This document shows positions 53,520 to 64,000 of a DNA stretch of 64,000 nucleotides, piece by piece (positions within the stretch are counted from its first letter, which is position 1; each line of letters begins with the position of its first letter). Made by a program: the position numbers and the translations under genes. Below the pieces are notes generated by a model, which ran no database searches, had not been told where the DNA came from, and saw only the letters and a list, made by a program, of their open reading frames with translations. Source of the stretch: Thermoproteota archaeon (GTDB taxonomy: Archaea; Korarchaeota; Korarchaeia; Korarchaeales; Korarchaeaceae); contig JAOZFN010000005.1 in NCBI GenBank assembly GCA_027492205.1, positions 40,775 to 104,774 on the forward strand, in the 5' to 3' direction.

Positions 53520-54827
53520 ATGTCTTCTGGGTCGGGGGAAGTGGCGAGGACGCACCTGATCTCACAGGTCGGGCCCGACCTGGAGGGACAGGAGGTCGGC
53601 CTGGCTGGCTGGGTCTACCGATATCGAGACCTGGGCTCCGTCGTCTTCATCGTGCTGAGGGACGCCACTGGCATAATTCAGGCGGTAGTCAGGTCGGAGG
53701 AGGTGGAGCCGGATAGCTGGGAGGCGGCCAAGAGGGCCGATGTGGAGGCCTCCGTGAAGCTGGCAGGCGTCGTGAGGCTGGATCCCAGGGCCCCCGGCGG
53801 GGTGGAGGTCAGGGCCACCAGGTTCAAACTGGTCGGCGAGTCTCCGGACTTCCCCATAAAGAAGGACACCGGAGTGGAGTTCAGGCTCGACAAGAGGCAC
53901 TTGGACATCCGGAGCAGGAGGATGTGGGCGGCCCTGAGAATTCGAGCTGAGTTCATAGCGGGCCTGAGGGAGTGGTTCGACTCCAACGGCTTCATCCCGG
54001 TTGAGGCCCCGACGTTCGTCAGCGCCGCGGTGGAGGGGGGAGCCACCCTCTTCGAACTCAACTACTTCGGCAGGAAGGCCTACCTCACCCAGAGCTCCCA
54101 GTTCTACCTTGAGGCCGCGATCTTCACCTTTGAGAAGGTCTACACAATCCAGCCGAGTTTCAGGGCGGAGAAGTCCAGAACCAGGAGGCACCTCACCGAG
54201 TTCTGGCACGCCGAGGCCGAGATGGCCTGGCACGACCTCGACGCGATGATGGACGTCGCGGAGGCTCTGGTGGATCACGCGGTTCATCGGGTGTACGAGA
54301 ACAGGAAGGAGGAGCTTGAGATACTTGGAAGGAAGTTCGAGCCACCTCAGAGGCCCTATCCTCGGATCTCCTACGACGAGGCCATAGACATAGCCCAGTC
54401 CAAGGGAGTTCAGATCGAGTGGGGGGACGACATGTCCACCGAGGCTGAGAGGGTCGTGTCGCTGGAGTTCGACAGGCCGGTCTTCGTCTGCAGGTATCCG
54501 AAGCAGGCCAAGGCCTTCTACCACGCGCCCGACCCAGCGAGACCCGAGGTGGTCCTCTGCGCGGATCTCCTCGCCCCCGAGGGCATAGGGGAGATAATAG
54601 GCGGCGGCCAGAGGATACACTCCTACGACGAGCTGGTGGCGAGGATCAGGGAGGAGGGCCTCAGGGTTGAGGACTACGAGTGGTACCTCGACCTGAGGAG
54701 GTACGGTTCGGTCCCCCACGCCGGCTTCGGCCTCGGCGTCGAGAGGACCGTCAGGTGGATCGCAGGCATACCGCACATCAGGGACGCGGTGGCCTTCCCG
54801 AGGACGCCGACGAGGCTGACCCCCTAA
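53520..54827 (+). CDS. asnS: Asparaginyl-tRNA synthetase
   Basis: OB domain, EGGATLF, YLTQSSQFY, FRAEKSRTRRHLTEFW, WYLDLRRYGSVPHAGFGLG. Confidence 0.93.
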   Translation: MSSGSGEVARTHLISQVGPDLEGQEVGLAGWVYRYRDLGSVVFIVLRDATGIIQAVVRSEEVEPDSWEAAKRADVEASVKLAGVVRLDPRAPGGVEVRATRFKLVGESPDFPIKKDTGVEFRLDKRHLDIRSRRMWAALRIRAEFIAGLREWFDSNGFIPVEAPTFVSAAVEGGATLFELNYFGRKAYLTQSSQFYLEAAIFTFEKVYTIQPSFRAEKSRTRRHLTEFWHAEAEMAWHDLDAMMDVAEALVDHAVHRVYENRKEELEILGRKFEPPQRPYPRISYDEAIDIAQSKGVQIEWGDDMSTEAERVVSLEFDRPVFVCRYPKQAKAFYHAPDPARPEVVLCADLLAPEGIGEIIGGGQRIHSYDELVARIREEGLRVEDYEWYLDLRRYGSVPHAGFGLGVERTVRWIAGIPHIRDAVAFPRTPTRLTP

Positions 54828-54832
54828 CCCCC

Positions 54833-55495
54833 TCACTCAAACCGGGCGAGGGACCCGCCCCCCTCCCCCTCCGTCTGACCGTTGTAGCGAGCCTCCAGGA
54901 GAGACCTCAGCCTCCGCGCCCTCTTCTCGCCAATCACCGACCTGAGTTCCGGGAAGCTGGCCTGGAAGACCCTCTTGAGCGTCCCGAACCTCTTGAGGAG
55001 GGCCTCCGCGCTCTTGGGGCCTATGCCTGGGACGCTGGTCAACACGTAGAGCTGCGCCTCGGACAGGCTCGCGAGCTTGGGTCGCCTCCTCGCCACCACG
55101 GGGCCGCCCCGCCCCTCCCTGGCCAGCGCGGCGATGAACCAGCATGTCTGGTCCCGGTCCGCCAGGCAAACCACGCTCGCGCCCATCCGCAGGAGGCCCG
55201 CCATGGCCCCCGCGATCACGCGCCCCTCCCTCTGGGTCAGGCCCAGGAAGGGCCCCTCTATCAGGAGGATCGCCCTCTCGTACACCTCCAAGATCCTCTT
55301 CACCTGGTCGAACACCCTGCCGTCGTAGATCGAGTTCAAGAAGTCTCGGGGGGTCTTCCTCTCGATGCAGACCTCTCCCCCAATCAGGTAGTCGCAGGGC
55401 TCCAGCCTCCTCCTGTCGACGCTGTTGAGGAGGCTCTTGAGGGCTTCGTAGATCTCCATCGGCTCGTTAGAGTCTACGACGACCCTGGCCGGCAC
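54833..55495 (-). CDS. xpf: Short XPF/ERCC4 structure-specific nuclease (nuclease + HhH2)
   Basis: VVDSNE, DYLI...IERKT..DF..SI.DGR..DQ, VPGIGPK. Confidence 0.92.
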   Translation of the reverse strand: MPARVVVDSNEPMEIYEALKSLLNSVDRRRLEPCDYLIGGEVCIERKTPRDFLNSIYDGRVFDQVKRILEVYERAILLIEGPFLGLTQREGRVIAGAMAGLLRMGASVVCLADRDQTCWFIAALAREGRGGPVVARRRPKLASLSEAQLYVLTSVPGIGPKSAEALLKRFGTLKRVFQASFPELRSVIGEKRARRLRSLLEARYNGQTEGEGGGSLARFE

Positions 55496-57158
55496 TCATA
55501 CTCCCCCTCATCCGCTCGATCTCGCTCAAAAGTAGCCTGACCTCGCTCTTAGGGTCAGCGAAGTCCATAGACTCGGCGAACAGCTTGATGAGCCCGGTGT
55601 CCTCTTGGTACCTCAGCCTGCCCCTGGCCACCACCTCCCTGCCCACGAGTCTCTTTGCCAGCTCGTCGGCCGGATACGAGTCCTCTTCGTACCCCTGCTG
55701 CTCTATCTCCTCCAACATGTCTTGGACGGTCTTCCCCAGGAGTTCCTCGGCCTTCCTCCCTATGAAGATCACCCGGGCAACCCCCGTCCCATCGTCGATC
55801 GTCAGGTGGAAGATCGGCCTGGGCACGGCCTCGGCGATCTCCCCACAGTTGGGGCACTGGAAGATGCCGTACTCCTTCGCGACCCTGGAGCCGCACTCCG
55901 GGCAGTACCACAGGATCCTCACCGGGTCGGAGACCCCGAGGACCGTGCCCCTGACCTCGCGGAACCCCTCCCCCTCAGTCAACTCGAGCCACGTCCTCTT
56001 GTACTTCAAAGAGCGGGCTATTCTGGCCGCGGACTCCGGAACCCTCCCCTCTCCCTCCGCCAGCACCTCTATCCTCCCGTAGTCTCCGACGTTGAGCACG
56101 CGGTCTCCATTCCTTATCGTCCAGAAGTGGTTCACCAGCCTGACCCTGGCCGGCAGGCGAATCGAGAGTACCTCTTCGGCCCGCGCCCCCCAGGCCCGCG
56201 CCAGGACAGGGCCGTCGGGTGTGGCAAGCACGAAGTCCACGACTGTCCGCCTTCCTGCCCTTGAGAAAGTCTCGCTGGGCTCGAATACGTATATCACGTT
56301 CCCCTCAACCTCTTGGGCGGTTCTCCCACCCTCTCCGGGCTGTATCACCCTGACGTCGGTTCTCGGCGTGCTGTGCAGCTCTATGGACTCGTCCCTAACC
56401 GCGACCCTGACGGACCTGACCTCCACCACGGAGCCCAGTGGAACGTCCTCCAGGAGCCGGGACTTGTCGTCCCACATCACCAGCCTGACGTCCTCGTCGA
56501 CCTTCTCGTCCGCCAAGACGGCGCTGGCTATCATTCCGGGGCGTCCATCCTTCCTCTTGAACTCCCTCGGGGCGCTCGCGCTGGTGAGGACCCCCCTAAC
56601 GTCGACCTCCTGTCCGGCCAGATCCTCCGTGATCTCGGCCACCGACAGGGGTTCCACGTCTTCCACGGGGAGTTCCGGGAACTCCCCCTCTAGGCGCCTC
56701 ACGGTCGAGCGGGAGTCCAGGTGCACCGTCAGCATGTTACCCCTCGGCCTCACGCGGCCCCCGCTGATCTCCACCACGTCCCCCTCTCGCACCTCCCCCG
56801 ACCTGATCATCTCGATGAGGTCCTTTGACCAAACGACGACTAGGACGACGCCGGTCTCGTCAGCCAGTCGGAACTCCGCCCTCTCGCCCGGCGCGCCGTC
56901 TCTCCTCGTGAACTCTATGACCCCGTGCATCCTGGTTATCCTCCCCCTCAACTTCACGCGGGACATGCCCGGGAACAGGCTCGCTATCTGGAGCACGGAC
57001 TCTGGCCGCTCGGTTGGAGTCTCCTGAATGCTGACCCCGAGGTCCGTCGCCACCAGTATCAGGGCCGCGTCCGGCTTCAGCAGCCCCCTGAACTCGTCGA
57101 CGTACTTCTTCATCCTCTCCCTGATCTCCTCCTCGGATACTCCGGCCGCCTCGGCCAC
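55467..57158 (-). CDS. rpa: Replication protein A, multi-OB with Zn finger
   Basis: Repeated OB motifs (DETG..VVW, LVMWD, DDGTG), CPEC...CPNC; start uncertain. Confidence 0.85.
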   Translation of the reverse strand: MAEAAGVSEEEIRERMKKYVDEFRGLLKPDAALILVATDLGVSIQETPTERPESVLQIASLFPGMSRVKLRGRITRMHGVIEFTRRDGAPGERAEFRLADETGVVLVVVWSKDLIEMIRSGEVREGDVVEISGGRVRPRGNMLTVHLDSRSTVRRLEGEFPELPVEDVEPLSVAEITEDLAGQEVDVRGVLTSASAPREFKRKDGRPGMIASAVLADEKVDEDVRLVMWDDKSRLLEDVPLGSVVEVRSVRVAVRDESIELHSTPRTDVRVIQPGEGGRTAQEVEGNVIYVFEPSETFSRAGRRTVVDFVLATPDGPVLARAWGARAEEVLSIRLPARVRLVNHFWTIRNGDRVLNVGDYGRIEVLAEGEGRVPESAARIARSLKYKRTWLELTEGEGFREVRGTVLGVSDPVRILWYCPECGSRVAKEYGIFQCPNCGEIAEAVPRPIFHLTIDDGTGVARVIFIGRKAEELLGKTVQDMLEEIEQQGYEEDSYPADELAKRLVGREVVARGRLRYQEDTGLIKLFAESMDFADPKSEVRLLLSEIERMRGSMSAGQGRRRL

Positions 57159-57195
57159 CTGCTTGACCCTCTCATCGATCTCCCCGTCGTCCAGC

Positions 57196-58245
57196 TCAGC
57201 TCACCCCCTTCCCCTCGACCCTCAGGAGCCACCTGGGCCCGTCCCTCGTCACGTCGAACTTAACGCCGAGCATTCTCCCCACGAGCCACACGTTAGACTC
57301 CGCGTGCGAGGTGAACTCCGTCAGGGTCACAGCGGACCTGCCCCTCGCCAGGGCCAGGTAGGGGATTATCATGTCCCCGGTGTGCCTATCGAACGCGGCG
57401 CCCGGCCTCAGCTCTCTGAGCAGGCTCTCAGCGGCCTCCCGGCCGACCACCTCGCTGGGCTTGCCCCTCTTCCCCAGAGAGTCCCCTCCAAGCGTAGACC
57501 CAGAGGAGCAGTTGGCCCAGATCGTTATGCCGGCCCCCGGCCCCAGGTGCTCGTTGGGAGACCAGTCTATCCTGATGTCGGCGTTCTCCCCGGCCTCGAG
57601 GAGGAGCTTCCTCGCAGAGTCGGCTATCCTCTCCGCAACGTGCTTCGGGAGCTTGACGGCGTGCGCGACGCCGAAGATGCCCTCAACCCTTCCCCTCTCG
57701 GTCAGCTCCAGCGCGGCGAGGGTGCGGGCGGGGCTCACCCTCAGCTTCACCTGCCCGCCCCCTCTCGGGTAGTGGCCTCTTCTCAAGAGCTCAACTTCGA
57801 CCTGAGCGCCCAAGAGACCGAGGTTCCTCGCGAAGACGAATTTCATGTAGTCGATCGGAGGCGCCATCGGGACGTCGGTCCCTCCGGTCAGCCTGACCTC
57901 CACTGGGGAGTCGGCGAAGAGAGCCACGGGCAGGATTGCCTGGATTATCAGGCTTACGCTCCCAGCGGTTCCGACGTCTAGCACGTATCTCCCGCCCCTA
58001 CGCTCTCGGGGGACGAATTTGACGCGCGTGGACCCGACCCTCAGTCCCTCTACGTCCGCGTCTGTCATCTGGACCAGCAGCCTGGCGGCCGAGAGGTGCT
58101 GCGGCCTGAGGCCAGGCCTGCTCCTCTTCGCCCTTATGTTGTAAACCTCCACCGGGGTGAGCGACACGGAGGCCAGAGCGAGGGCGTACCTGAAGATGGA
58201 GCCGCCACCTTCACCGTAACTGCCGTCTATCCGCACGAGCTCCAT
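57196..58245 (-). CDS. rtcA: RNA 3'-terminal phosphate cyclase
   Basis: IDGSYGEGGG, PGLRPQH, GGTDV, RGHYPRGGG, DRHTGD. Confidence 0.96.
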   Translation of the reverse strand: MELVRIDGSYGEGGGSIFRYALALASVSLTPVEVYNIRAKRSRPGLRPQHLSAARLLVQMTDADVEGLRVGSTRVKFVPRERRGGRYVLDVGTAGSVSLIIQAILPVALFADSPVEVRLTGGTDVPMAPPIDYMKFVFARNLGLLGAQVEVELLRRGHYPRGGGQVKLRVSPARTLAALELTERGRVEGIFGVAHAVKLPKHVAERIADSARKLLLEAGENADIRIDWSPNEHLGPGAGITIWANCSSGSTLGGDSLGKRGKPSEVVGREAAESLLRELRPGAAFDRHTGDMIIPYLALARGRSAVTLTEFTSHAESNVWLVGRMLGVKFDVTRDGPRWLLRVEGKGVS

Positions 58246-58315
58246 TAAGGGCCCGCTAATCGGCGATCACCGTCTTAAATAAGGTTCGGCGCCGACATTG
58301 CGAGGTAAAGGGGGA

Positions 58316-58939
58316 ATGCCAACGGCCGAGGTGTGCGTCGAGCAGGTCTCTGAGGGCCTCGTTGCGCTCGCCTTCCGGGGATCTAGGCTGATGTGCAACA
58401 CAATTCCCCTGGAGAGCGAGAGGTCGGCCCTGAGGCACCTCAGGATCGCGTGCGAGAAGGCTTGGGGCAGAGTGAAGCTCAAGAGAAATCCCTTCTGCGG
58501 CCCTCAGGCAGAGACGGTGGCCTCCCTCGTGAATCGGCTCTACTTGGGGGATCCGGTGGACGCGGGGGACGTTCAGCTGGAACCCCCCAGGTCGGAGTCG
58601 ATGAGGAGGGTCCTGCTCGCAGTCTCGGCGATTCCCCGGGGGAGGGTTACGACCTACGGTGCCCTGGCCAAGGCAGTCGGGCTGTCCCCTCGCGTGGTGG
58701 GCTCCAACCTCGGAAGGAACCCCTTCCCGCTGCTGGTTCCCTGCCACAGGGTCGTGAGGTCCGACCTGACCATCGGGGGGTACTCGTACGGCCGCCTCGT
58801 CAAGGCCTACATCCTCATGCGCGAGGGGGTGGAGATAGACCTGGAGACCGGCAAGGTCGACAGGAGGGCCCTCTTGCCGGCTTGGGTTCTGAAGGGTAGG
58901 CTGCAGGTCGCCCTCCAGGGCGTCGAGGCGGGGTGGTGA
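58316..58939 (+). CDS. ogt: Methylated-DNA--protein-cysteine methyltransferase
   Basis: IPRGRVTTYG, RVVG, NPFPLLVPCHRVV, GGY. Confidence 0.9.
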   Translation: MPTAEVCVEQVSEGLVALAFRGSRLMCNTIPLESERSALRHLRIACEKAWGRVKLKRNPFCGPQAETVASLVNRLYLGDPVDAGDVQLEPPRSESMRRVLLAVSAIPRGRVTTYGALAKAVGLSPRVVGSNLGRNPFPLLVPCHRVVRSDLTIGGYSYGRLVKAYILMREGVEIDLETGKVDRRALLPAWVLKGRLQVALQGVEAGW

Positions 58940-60209
58940 GGAGGGTGGCGGAGAACAGGCCCGTCTTCGGGATGGACTACGGGACCTCCTACTTCAAGTT
59001 CGGGCCCCTCTGGCTCGGGAAGTACCCGGAGATGGTGGAGAACAGGGGGTACTTCCCGAGGATGTCCAAGGTGGTGGCCGAGATCAGGGGGATCGAGCCA
59101 AGGGAGATCGTCGTCGGGCCCGAGGTCTCCGAGTACCTGGAGTCCAGGGAGGATCTCGAGAGGCTCTACTACCCCATGAGGAACGGAGTCGTCCCTCGGG
59201 ACGACGAGCGTGGCTGGAGGGTCGTCAAGGAGTTGACGAGGTTCGCCCTCCTGAAGCACTATCCGGGCGCGCAGAGCCCCCTCGGCGGCAGGTTCACGGG
59301 GTTCTACGTCGTCGCGGCCCTCGCCGCGCAGGCCCCTACGTACATGTACGAGAGGCTCTTCGAGATCCACGGCCAGCTAAACTCCGAGGAGGGGAAGACG
59401 CTCGTCCGGGCCATGACCATAATACCCCAGCCGCTCGCCGTGGCGATTGCCGAGAAGGCGACGACCTGCGTCGTCCTGGAGGGCGGACACGGAAACACGC
59501 AGATCACCCCAATAAGCCGGGACGTGATTCGAGGGGCCGTGATACCGCTGAACAGGGGAGGGTCTGATTCCGACGCCATAGCCAGGCAGATCTTGAAGGA
59601 CCTCGGCTATCCGGATCTGGCCAGGGAGGACAAGTTCGTCAGGATGTTCAAGGAGATGGCTGGCCTCGTTCCGCTCGACCTGAACTCTGCCATCTCGTGG
59701 GCCAGGGAGCACCCGGCCGCCCTGACCTCCAAGTTCAGGATCCCCGGGACGACCGTCGAAGTGGACATGGGGGACAAGGCGTGGCAGAGGTTCCTCATCG
59801 GGGAGTTCTACTTCAACCCGGGGCACGAGGTCTTCGAGAGCTACTACTCCAGGGGCTTCCCCGGGCCCAGGGACACGATAGTGGGCGACAGGGTCATACC
59901 AGGCAAGGTCTCCCTGGCGGAGGCCATCAGGGAGGCCGTCTCGAGGACGCCGGTCGAGATCCAGTCGACGCTCCTGAGGAACGTGATACTGTCCGGCGGC
60001 GCATTCAGCTGGACGGTTCCAGCTGGACTGGAGGGCGTGGCGGTGGACAGCCCCACGAAGCTGTCTAGGATGCTTCGGGACGCCGGGATCGAGACACAGC
60101 CCAAGATGGTAAGGGAGCCCCAGTTCTCCGTCTGGAGGGGCGCCGTGGTCTACGGACTCTTCCTGCCCGAGGGGGTCAGGTGGGACTGGTCGACCATGGA
60201 GGGCTGGCG

Positions 60210-60225
<16 letters not shown>
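58933..60225 (+). CDS. Crenactin (archaeal actin)
   Basis: DYGTSYFKFG, EGGHGNTQ, ILSGGAFSW, QPLAVAIAE, EPQFSVWRGAVVYG and EGWRY closely follow Pyrobaculum crenactin as recalled. Confidence 0.92.
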
Positions 60226-62065
<1,840 letters not shown>

Positions 62066-62080
62066 CCGACCCCAGTCGTG

Positions 62081-63211
62081 TCAGCGGACCGCGTCGGGGG
62101 CGAGGTAGCCCCAGCGGTCCACGGCGACCCTCATCTCCTCGCTCGCCTCCACCGCCTCGAAGAACCCCTCGCCCCTGAGGGCCGCGTCTATGGCCGCCCT
62201 CGCCGCCGAGACGCCGCTCTTGTAACCCCAGGGGTGGTCGTAGACCCCCTCGTCGAATAGGAGCACTTGATTGGCCCCGAACAGCGAGACGTTCGCCTCC
62301 ACCGAGCCCGGGTGCATGACCCCCCTGGCCGAGGGCATGGCGCTCCGGATCCCCTGAATCTTCCCTAGGAGGGCCGAGTCCGTCTCCTCTATGCTGGCCC
62401 TCGGCGCCGAGCCAGCCGAGGGTCTCTCGACCATCCCCGCCCCAGCCAGCCTGAGCAGGGTGGCGCACGCGCCGGGCGAGAGCCAGCGCATGGGGACGTA
62501 GCCCGGACCTCCCCGGGCGTACACGCCGATCTTGACGTCCAAAGCCGCTATGGCCTCTATGCTCGCCAAGCTTGACGCTTCCACCGCCGCGAACGGAAGG
62601 CCGGCGTCTGCCGCCTCCTGAACCCGATCCACGAGCGCGTCGGCTCTCGATTCGACCGACACCACGTAGATCGGCCTCCTACCTGTTTCCTCCTTCACCC
62701 TGTCCATCATGTCGGCGGCATGAGACGCGCGGGCCGAGATGGGCGAGTCGGGATGATCGACCAGGAACTCCGGTTCCAACCCGAGGTCTGCTCCGGACGC
62801 GGCAAGCTCATAGAACCTCTTAGCGAGCTCAAACGGTTCTCGGCTCTCTGCCCTTATCACGACCCCCAGCAGCGGGCCCCTTATGCCGGTGTACCTGCGA
62901 ACGTCCTTGAGCCCCAGCCTGGGCCCCCTGAACAGCCCCTCGGGGACGGCGAGGCGGGACACCCTCGCTTCAGCCGGGATGGCCCTGAGGACGCTCCTGA
63001 GCATCTGGGCCAAGTGGGTGGCCGGAGAAGCGGGGTCGACGATATCTCGCGGTATCTCCACGGTCAGCCTCTCCCCGTCGGCCACCCTCTTGACCCTGGG
63101 TGCCGGATCTCCCAGCCCCCTGAACGCCGAGTTTAACGCCTCCACAGCCGCCTCCACGGCTTCGTGATCTTTCAGGTTGAGCTCGGCCACGATGTCAGCT
63201 GAACTCGACAT
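62081..63211 (-). CDS. Degenerate form III RuBisCO-like protein, predicted catalytically inactive
   Basis: Scaffold motifs FRGPRLG, PLLGVV, GAD, EETG, RLAG, HPG, HPWG...AARAAIDA, RWG retained; KxK, KDDE, HR, SGG and GGG absent. Confidence 0.8.
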   Translation of the reverse strand: MSSSADIVAELNLKDHEAVEAAVEALNSAFRGLGDPAPRVKRVADGERLTVEIPRDIVDPASPATHLAQMLRSVLRAIPAEARVSRLAVPEGLFRGPRLGLKDVRRYTGIRGPLLGVVIRAESREPFELAKRFYELAASGADLGLEPEFLVDHPDSPISARASHAADMMDRVKEETGRRPIYVVSVESRADALVDRVQEAADAGLPFAAVEASSLASIEAIAALDVKIGVYARGGPGYVPMRWLSPGACATLLRLAGAGMVERPSAGSAPRASIEETDSALLGKIQGIRSAMPSARGVMHPGSVEANVSLFGANQVLLFDEGVYDHPWGYKSGVSAARAAIDAALRGEGFFEAVEASEEMRVAVDRWGYLAPDAVR

Positions 63212-63263
63212 CCCGCGGCCCTCCTGGTAAACTCCTTAATGGTTTTTGCCACGGGAAATCCAG

Positions 63264-64000
63264 ATGGCCCTCGACGCCGAGGAGGGCTCAGAGGTTACGC
63301 TAGAGCCGGGTCAGGGATTCGTGGTCTACGGACCCCTCAGGGTCTCGACCCTAGAGGGGGAGGTGGAGGTCTGGGGGGCGCCCGCTGACGAGGTGATTGT
63401 GGACCATCCCGACGTGCCGGTCCTCGTGAGGGCCGTGGAGAGGTCGAGGGTCCTCGTGGCGGGAGCCGGCAGCGTCGAACCCCTCGAGGATCTCATTCCA
63501 GAGTCTTGGGAGGAGGTCGCCGGTTCCATCGAGCCGGGAGACACCCTCGTCGTATTGGGCGGGGTCGACGTCGGCAAGAGCGGGCTGCTTACTTTCCTCA
63601 CGAATCGACTGGCCGCCGAGGGCATGAGGGTGGCGCTGCTCGACGCCGACGTCGGGCAGTCTGACGTGGGCCCCCCGGGGACCATGGGCCTCCTGCTTGC
63701 CGACTCCCCGCTGATCCACCCAAAGCTCTCAGAGCCCTCGGCGCTGTTCTTCGTGGGGGACGTGACGCCCCGGGGTCACCTGCTTCCGATGGTGGTCGGC
63801 TCTCTGAGACTGGCGAGGCTCGCCCGGGAGAGGGGCGCCGACGTGACTCTGGTGAACACGACCGGCATGATAAGGGGGGGCGCGGCGAGGGCGCTGAAGA
63901 GGTTCAAGCTCGCCGCCCTGAACCCGACCAAGGTGCTGATGATCCAGAGGGAGGGGGAGGCCGAGCACATCAGGCGGCTCATTCCCGGGGGCGCTAGGGT
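63264..64000 (+). CDS. Clp1/Nol9-type polynucleotide 5'-OH kinase (3'-truncated; absent from the ORF track)
   Basis: Manual translation: GGVDVGKS, LDADVGQSDVGPPGT, FFVG..TP, VNTTG. Confidence 0.9.
   Translation, partial: MALDAEEGSEVTLEPGQGFVVYGPLRVSTLEGEVEVWGAPADEVIVDHPDVPVLVRAVERSRVLVAGAGSVEPLEDLIPESWEEVAGSIEPGDTLVVLGGVDVGKSGLLTFLTNRLAAEGMRVALLDADVGQSDVGPPGTMGLLLADSPLIHPKLSEPSALFFVGDVTPRGHLLPMVVGSLRLARLARERGADVTLVNTTGMIRGGAARALKRFKLAALNPTKVLMIQREGEAEHIRRLIPGGAR

Follow-up and report, generated by a model that had tools for sequence, protein, structure and literature searches.

An intact RuBisCO relative without its catalytic residues, kept by selection in Korarchaeota

The window, a stretch of 64,000 nucleotides from a korarchaeal contig (JAOZFN010000005.1, positions 40,775 to 104,774), carries on its minus strand, at 62081-63211, a gene for a RuBisCO-like protein (RLP) that converges with a gene for ribose-1,5-bisphosphate (R15P) isomerase. 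We use the name RLPx for the clade of this protein. Judging from its sequence, RLPx is an intact relative of RuBisCO that selection has preserved in a single group of archaea from hot vents, and it is probably a non-enzyme. In the reading that we prefer, to which we assign a probability of about 0.55, RLPx would be a selected, non-catalytic protein that depends on its fold and binds a ligand or a partner or serves as a scaffold.

Fold and loss of the active site

RLPx is a true homologue within the RuBisCO large-subunit superfamily and has the two-domain fold. The AlphaFold2 (AF2) model, built on an alignment of 114 sequences, reached a predicted local distance difference test score (pLDDT) of 96.4 and a predicted template modelling score (pTM) of 0.94, and DSSP assigned to it an N-terminal domain of four strands and two helices (beta-alpha-beta-beta-alpha-beta) and an eight-stranded barrel. 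The top Foldseek matches in the Protein Data Bank (PDB) were the form III RuBisCOs 2d69, 3kdo and 3wqp (query template modelling score, TMq, 0.82-0.86), with the RLPs 2oej, 2qyg and 1ykw nearly equal (TMq 0.80-0.86 over RuBisCO and RLP chains). By sequence, the best PDB match was MtnW (2oej; E 2e-23, ~25% identity), and weak matches were found to 1ykw (E 1e-9) and 2qyg (E 4e-8), which we take to represent the RLP clades IV-Photo and DeepYkr. Chains of MtnW and form III RuBisCO could be aligned with the protein over the full length. The Pfam model PF00016 (RuBisCO_large) matched at 44.3 bits, against a gathering threshold of 30.1, over amino acids (aa) 286-367 only, which correspond to the C-terminal third of RuBisCO_large; the model of the RuBisCO N-domain, PF02788, gave no match in the window protein.

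Among the NCBIfam models, that of form III RuBisCO (TIGR03326) scored best, with 98.6 bits against an equivalog cut-off of 497.45, and the MtnW-type models NF007095 (84.8 against 409 bits) and TIGR03332 (69.7 against 513.6 bits) and the OiaX model (41.4 against 700) also stayed below their cut-offs. The marks of a bona fide form III RuBisCO, namely the carbamylated K201 with the Mg ligands, the substrate residues and a score above the TIGR03326 cut-off, are each absent from RLPx. The original prediction had allowed that the protein might belong to a characterised RLP clade; model scores and the tree described below, both checked for this point, place it in none, neither in the MtnW/YkrW nor in the OiaX clade. 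In the broad sense RLPx is a form IV RLP, as a superfamily member with substituted active-site residues.

The substitutions were read against the genome's own canonical form III RuBisCO (443 aa, every motif intact; L001:1078-2409, G000:C5) and against PDB chains, with canonical residues in what we take to be spinach numbering. The canonical GTVPKPK has become GVVIRAE (T173 to V117, K175 to R120, K177 to a gap), GMDYIKDDE has become GADLGLEPE (the carbamylated K201 to L145, the Mg ligand D203 to P147), HAHR has become YARG (H294 to R233, R295 to G234), HVGT..GKLE has become ERPSAG-SAP (H327 to E262, K334 of loop 6 to S268), SSGG has become SARGV (S379 to R296, G381 to V298) and GGG has become DEG (G403 to D320, G404 to E321); G237 stands in the place of H298. 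Fifteen of the 17 catalytic positions of the C-terminal domain are thus replaced in the window protein, and the only survivors are E204 (E148) and G380 (G297). The former is still Glu in the window protein and its two nearest relatives, which are part of genus g1 only (genera are labelled g1 to g7 here), and the K175 equivalent, Arg in the window protein, is Lys in a relative with 97% identity. The N-terminal domain has ~92 aa compared with ~140 aa in the canonical enzyme (~48 fewer), and the loop with E60, T65 and W66 is gone together with N123. The motif-by-motif replacements that the original prediction had listed from a by-eye alignment all hold in these alignments, and it was right that the N-terminal domain is shortened, with the catalytic loop deleted, and that the losses are concentrated at the active site.

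RLPx thus lacks the carbamylated Lys and one Mg ligand, as well as both phosphate sites, the Lys of loop 6 and the N-domain residues that act in the partner subunit. Without the carbamate Lys and this Mg ligand, RLPx would not be expected to carry out the carbamate- and Mg2+-dependent chemistry of the superfamily, such as carboxylation of ribulose-1,5-bisphosphate (RuBP) or enolisation. Canonical binding of RuBP also appears unlikely, since D320 and E321 replace glycines of G403-G404-G405, which we take to form the P1 phosphate site of RuBisCO through their backbone amides.

Within the barrel, conservation is lowest at the columns of the former active site. Across nine divergent RLPx representatives, conservation was scored by BLOSUM pair scores, and the 17 ex-catalytic columns of the C-terminal domain had a mean of 0.03 compared with 1.17 for the 281 barrel columns; 99% of random column sets scored higher, or 98% when the two loop-6 columns were left out. 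In canonical rows and paralogues, the same columns scored 5.61 against a background of 3.28. The strongly conserved RLPx columns are mostly Gly, Pro and others common to RuBisCO, with the clade-specific residues G109, G112, P126, F133, N307, Y324, R346 and E348 in addition. The densest conserved segment runs from H326 to E348, together with W367-G368, and includes the invariant, clade-specific triplet R346-G347-E348 (RGE). R263, one residue past the H327 column, is found in 15 of 16 clade members, and D320, kept in seven of the nine representatives, is the sole well-conserved replacement of a catalytic position. A purpose-built acidic phosphate pocket, as proposed in the original prediction, is unsupported clade-wide. 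Selection appears to guard the two-domain fold and a C-terminal surface (HPxG...D...RGE, WG), and not a clade-wide pocket chemistry, while the old pocket would be drifting. A non-catalytic, fold-dependent role is therefore favoured by the low constraint on this pocket across the clade.

Phylogeny, distribution and selection

RLPx is a new clade of the RuBisCO superfamily, outside form III and the MtnW-type RLPs. In an IQ-TREE analysis of 59 rows (LG+C20 with posterior mean site frequencies, PMSF; 200 bootstrap trees), the 17 RLPx rows formed one side of a branch with 100/100 support that was present in 100% of the bootstrap trees, and a quick tree of 128 rows agreed on this grouping. The included MtnW representative (P0027) fell in a third group; the IV-Photo and DeepYkr clades enter the comparison through their weak PDB matches only. 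Korarchaeal form III sequences formed a clade of their own deep within form III, apart from RLPx, and we therefore rejected the possibility that RLPx arose by a recent duplication of the form III gene of Korarchaeota. From the outside inwards, the branching order within RLPx is P0006, g5, g2/g6, and then g1 and (g4, g3). This order matches a tree of three linked housekeeping proteins; therefore, the inheritance of RLPx looks vertical. Among the sequences searched, the clade occurs only in Korarchaeota and related metagenome sequences.

The basal member, P0006, is a half-degenerate metagenome protein of 422 aa that scores 283 bits on the form III model, compared with 98.6 for the window protein. 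It keeps E60/T65/W66, K175, K177, R295 and G380-G381, has lost K201, D203, H294, H327, K334 and G403/G404, and already carries the clade signatures EAN and RGE. From this pattern of retained and lost residues, it would follow that the metal and carbamate site was lost first and that the phosphate and N-domain sites went later. The sequences indicate that RLPx derived from a form-III-like ancestor, and its catalytic apparatus would have been lost stepwise during vertical descent in Korarchaeota. A second form-III-like pair, P0018 and P0019, is without K175, K177, K201, R295, H327 and the GGG motif; these two proteins branch inside the form III group and not with RLPx, a case of independent degeneration.

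Orthologues of RLPx were found in 22 of 40 genomes of the class, several of the matchless genomes being only 63-87% complete. By genus, the gene is present in 4/5 genomes of g1, 1/1 of g2, 10/21 of g3, 2/4 of g4, 4/5 of g5, 1/2 of g6 and 0/2 of g7. All 22 orthologues are intact open reading frames (ORFs) over 26-97% identity, and the window ORF itself has an ATG start and zero internal stops; K201 is absent from every one of them, and the other catalytic residues are likewise gone. The idea that g3 copies are pseudogenes was rejected, as the in-frame stops of four matches fall outside the ORFs and all four are intact at 358-361 aa. In a profile search of the phylum, bit scores do not separate RLPx of g3 (123-188) from canonical RuBisCO (146-210); the assignment to one or the other rests on motifs and trees, and matches in the extra genomes G040-G042 were left out.

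Wider searches returned few close relatives. A word-indexed search gave relatives at 75%, 56% and 54% identity, and a HMMER scan of 1.84 billion representatives gave 437 matches with E<=0.001, only five of which had E<1e-30. The 97%-identical relative lies in a metagenome-assembled genome of Thermoproteota. Members of the 90% cluster, from Candidatus Korarchaeota, are named either 'hypothetical protein' or 'RuBisCO large subunit C-terminal-like domain-containing protein'.

RLPx is intact and kept under purifying selection. The pairwise ratio of nonsynonymous to synonymous substitutions (dN/dS, Nei-Gojobori) was 0.05-0.24 across RLPx pairs and never near 1. Within the window's genus it was 0.19 (dS 0.07) and 0.20 (dS 0.83), in g3 it was 0.09-0.14 at dS 0.13-0.70, and in g4 and g5 it was about 0.05-0.11 with dS near saturation; the adjacent isomerase gave 0.03-0.08 on the same pairs. 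The claim that the gene is selected and not decaying is borne out by these values and by the 22 intact orthologues without K201, and close relatives with an intact KDDE motif and dN/dS near 1, which would have pointed to decay, were sought among the 22 orthologues and neither was found. As an enzyme homologue that lacks the catalytic residues and appears, from its sequences, to be under purifying selection, RLPx would qualify as a pseudoenzyme.

The gene has also been lost cleanly. The marker tree requires a minimum of two independent losses, and in g3 genomes without RLPx the Clp1-like and DUF72 genes lie ~170 bp apart in 5/5 examined. A tblastn search for RLPx remnants in the gaps of L045, L046 and L065-L069 gave no meaningful match.

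Compared with known systems, RLPx shares the two-domain fold of the form III RuBisCOs of Thermococcus kodakarensis (1geh/3a12/3kdo) and Pyrococcus horikoshii (2d69) with TM 0.82-0.86, keeps their C-terminal GHPxG...WG region and has their association with R15P isomerase in the genome, but it is without the carbamylated Lys, Mg ligand, phosphate sites, loop-6 Lys and N-domain catalytic loop. MtnW/YkrW (2,3-diketo-5-methylthiopentyl-1-phosphate enolase; Geobacillus kaustophilus 2oej, Bacillus subtilis 2zvi) is also a non-carboxylating RuBisCO homologue; unlike RLPx, however, it is an enzyme, and in the alignment it retains the K-D-D-E metal and carbamate motif that RLPx has lost.

The highly divergent 'Form IV-like' RLPs of phages and Beckwithbacteria, described in the available part of Jaffe et al. 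(10.1101/386292; MBE 2019), resemble RLPx as short, very divergent proteins of the RuBisCO fold with modified key residues. According to the same part of that source, some key form IV residues are still common to most phage sequences, and these RLPs differ from RLPx in host range and lineage. None of them was among the five HMMER matches with E<1e-30. A feature search of the ESM-Atlas gave a viral RuBisCO_large cluster as the nearest (score 0.94), which we take as a lead only. We found no description of the RLPx clade in the searchable full-text literature, a scope that leaves aside the supplementary trees of Korarchaeota papers. The accessible portions of two studies of Korarchaeota genomics (PMC12787533, PMC10667645) mention form III-b RuBisCO, DeoA and the isomerase alone. 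RbcL was selected by above-threshold K01601 hits in the first of them, as far as the accessible text describes it, and such a selection would likely miss RLPx.

The isomerase neighbour and the conserved block

The features of the locus are collected in Table 1. On the RLPx strand, the divergent intergenic region reads AAACCATTAAGGAGTTT, followed by GGAGGG and the RLPx ATG, and the A/T-rich box is a putative promoter.

Table 1. Features of the RLPx locus in window coordinates
Feature	Coordinates	Strand	Basis
RLPx gene, 376-aa RuBisCO-like protein and stop codon (62081-62083)	62081..63211	-	ORF list; Pfam PF00016; AF2; Foldseek
N-terminal alpha/beta domain, shortened (aa 1-92), without E60/T65/W66 loop and N123	62936..63211	-	Alignments; DSSP of model; translation checked
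C-terminal TIM-barrel domain (aa 93-376)	62084..62935	-	Eight beta/alpha repeats in model; aligned over range to MtnW and form III chains
GVVIRAE (aa 116-122), replacing T173-K175-K177 strand motif GTVPKPK	62846..62866	-	Alignment
GADLGLEPE (aa 140-148), replacing G-x-D-x-x-K201-D-D203-E204	62768..62794	-	Alignment
E262-R263-P264, replacing H327 strand end	62420..62428	-	Alignment
D320-E321-G322 (aa 320-322), replacing G403-G404-G405	62246..62254	-	Alignment
H326-P-x-G ... D342 ... R346-G347-E348, most conserved segment of the clade	62168..62236	-	Column conservation
Spacer of 15 bp between convergent stop codons of RLPx and isomerase	62066..62080	.	ORF coordinates
Ribose-1,5-bisphosphate isomerase (e2b2), 333 aa	61064..62065	+	TIGR00511, 436.5 bits against cut-off 314.1
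Divergent intergenic region of 34 bp, common to RLPx and Clp1-like gene	63212..63245	.	A/T-rich box and GGAGGG; putative promoter function
Clp1-like P-loop protein, divergent neighbour, cut by window end	63246..63998	+	Pfam CLP1_P, 103.9 bits; same neighbour in g1, g2, g3 and g5 loci
DUF72 protein, part of conserved block	60210..60992	-	Pfam DUF72, 139.5 bits; synteny
Crenactin-like actin-family protein, 430 aa	58933..60225	+	Pfam Actin, 45 bits

The neighbouring isomerase looks functional, as had been proposed, and the coordinates of the two stop codons, 15 bp apart, hold. It is the sole copy above the TIGR00511 cut-off in the genome (1.94 Mb on 17 contigs, 96% complete), and its residues C133 and D202 are invariant in 12/12 aligned orthologues; we presume that they have the catalytic role of their counterparts in the Thermococcus enzyme. 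The original prediction had asked whether an active rbcL and AMP phosphorylase exist elsewhere in the genome, and both were found, the former as the canonical form III RuBisCO and the latter as two genes above the TIGR03327 cut-off (G000:C4:103694-105181 and G000:C9:173489-175000; L003, L004). Two AMP phosphorylases also occur in most relatives outside g3. At L001:1-843 on the minus strand, divergent to the canonical form III RuBisCO gene, lies an ORF that we take, from its sequence, to encode a fructose-1,6-bisphosphate aldolase/phosphatase.

The convergent pair of RLPx and isomerase is present at 12/12 loci outside g3 (in g1, g2, g4, g5 and g6) and at 11 of 13 metagenome loci; of the remaining two, one is a canonical operon of deoA, e2b2 and rbcL from another organism, and the other is a partial match. 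Form III RuBisCO and AMP phosphorylase occur in every genome that has the pair. The conservation of synteny that had been sought among orthologues thus holds outside g3 and breaks down within it, where RLPx is kept without the isomerase. Most of the adjacency belongs to a larger block that is conserved across family f1 (window positions 53520-63998; loci L039-L052), in the order Asp/Asn-tRNA synthetase-like (class II aminoacyl-tRNA synthetase), ERCC4 nuclease, OB-fold protein, RtcA, MGMT-like, crenactin, DUF72, (isomerase), RLPx, Clp1-like kinase, glycerate-kinase-like (DUF4147+MOFRL), TRAM and TrmB. Several genes of RNA-end processing (RtcA, Clp1-like, TRAM) flank RLPx in this block, and the crenactin-like protein has 80-84% identity across genus g3. 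In G004, of family f2, the pair alone is retained, flanked on one side by a metallophosphoesterase and pyrB/pyrC-like genes and on the opposite side by a TPR/CdvA-like region; this genome is an independent datum for the pair and keeps a functional link possible.

Two sets of genomes speak against an obligate link. In g3, AMP phosphorylase is found in 0/21 genomes, with no isomerase above the cut-off and no canonical RuBisCO, and RLPx nevertheless occurs in 10 of the 21. Conversely, G032 and G033 of g4 keep RuBisCO, AMP phosphorylase and, at this locus, the isomerase, but have lost RLPx. The proposal of an obligate partnership between RLPx and either RuBisCO or the isomerase is weakened by both observations and by the synteny of the housekeeping block, and we regard the coupling of RLPx to the isomerase as weakly supported. 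A complex prediction of the isomerase with RLPx gave a score of 0.00 (mark 0.32), a 'no answer' that counts neither way.

In g3, RLPx lies directly upstream of the DUF72 gene on the same strand with an overlap of ~22 nt (L039:6553-8360 and other g3 loci), which suggests that the two may have become co-transcribed after loss of the isomerase gene. A functional link to DUF72 was considered and rejected, since DUF72 is found in 38/40 genomes with or without RLPx.

The co-directional operon on a metagenome contig of another organism (L081:1282-4906) comprises deoA, e2b2 and a canonical rbcL, with a Ser/Thr kinase-like ORF after them, and illustrates how these three genes are usually linked. By analogy, RLPx and the isomerase gene may have been left as neighbours by an ancestral e2b2-rbcL pair.

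Further RuBisCO-family genes were seen in these genomes. A third one, of 440 aa, lies ~10 kb from RLPx in a g5 genome (L037, G039:C8:169-1176); its product keeps K-D-D-E, has the substitutions MIKPCTG and GHMDCAG and groups with the RLP-type P0034 and P0055. In the g3 genome G020, a 413-aa open frame at C9:4596-5504 scores 79.6 bits on RuBisCO_large and is distinct from the RLPx of that genome.

Candidate roles of RLPx and their meaning

By the probabilities that we assign, a non-catalytic role comes first, followed by a rebuilt enzyme, an obligate partner and a relic. In the scenario that we propose for the non-catalytic role, RLPx would have originated next to the gene for R15P isomerase, an enzyme of the pentose-bisphosphate (AMP) pathway, and may be what is left in situ of the ancestral pair; its present role would be separable from that pathway. 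Several observations weigh against this preferred reading. The genera with the isomerase link largely conserve R120, an acidic residue at 146, R263, D320 and E321, and the weak conservation across the clade could reflect the evolution of different activities in different genera. That RLPx lies next to the isomerase gene may be purely historical. RLPx has a dN/dS that is 3-6 times that of the isomerase, and it is dispensable, as it was cleanly lost at least twice independently, in the g4 pair G032/G033 and in a subclade of g3. The sequencing runs listed for the locus are all DNA (word share <=0.24), with no RNA run among them. As a bolder and tentative form of the same reading, RLPx might be the first lineage of true pseudoenzymes in the RuBisCO superfamily, an rbcL of the ancestral AMP-pathway cluster that degenerated in situ and was kept as a non-catalytic scaffold for sensing or sequestering a sugar bisphosphate or for a protein partner, with P0006 as a surviving intermediate.

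We are more doubtful of a new enzyme with a rebuilt site, in which Arg at K175, the acidic residue at 146, E262/R263, D320/E321 and H326 would bind a metal and a phosphorylated sugar and act on an intermediate of pentose-bisphosphate metabolism or nucleotide salvage. These residues do lie at the C-terminal ends of barrel strands 1, 2, 6 and 8 in the AF2 model, and in the 12 isomerase-linked sequences R263 and E321 are conserved to at least 90% and D142 is invariant. To our knowledge, moreover, every RLP with an assigned function so far is an enzyme, which reuses the carbamate/Mg2+ enolisation machinery, and the isomerase pairing persists in the different neighbourhood of G004. The set of ex-active-site columns, however, scores below almost all random barrel sets; g2, g3 and g6 differ at most of the proposed positions, no polar constellation extends clade-wide beyond R263 and D320, and RLPx is kept in g3 without the pathway.

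It seems improbable that RLPx is a non-catalytic partner or regulator of R15P isomerase or form III RuBisCO, such as a subunit of a hetero-oligomer, an inhibitor or a channel. The consistent convergent pairing outside g3 and in the metagenome loci, and the presence of form III RuBisCO and AMP phosphorylase in every genome with the pair, are what such a role would predict, and paralogous pseudo-subunits are, as general knowledge has it, a common fate of pseudoenzymes. However, RLPx is retained under constraint in ten g3 genomes that have none of the pathway's three enzymes, and the two g4 genomes keep all three without RLPx. Because the genes converge, they are not co-transcribed, the synteny is mostly that of a conserved block of unrelated genes, and RLPx has lost the N-domain loops with which each subunit of a RuBisCO dimer completes the active site of its partner. 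A decaying relic, a dead rbcL copy heading for loss, would account for the missing catalytic residues, the clean deletions and the faster evolution relative to the isomerase, but it is effectively excluded by the intact ORFs in all orthologues, the low dN/dS, the very high AF2 confidence of a well-packed fold and the invariant clade-specific residues.

RLPx is new as a clade and remains within the known RLP kind. It drops the carbamate/Mg2+ machinery yet is under purifying selection; therefore, it would extend the functional range of a much-studied fold. The series from the half-degenerate basal member to the fully stripped forms offers a natural case of an active site being dismantled while the fold is kept. 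Automated pipelines label RLPx genes as RuBisCO large-subunit-like, and these genes could thus be miscounted as capacity for carbon fixation or the AMP pathway in reconstructions of Korarchaeota.

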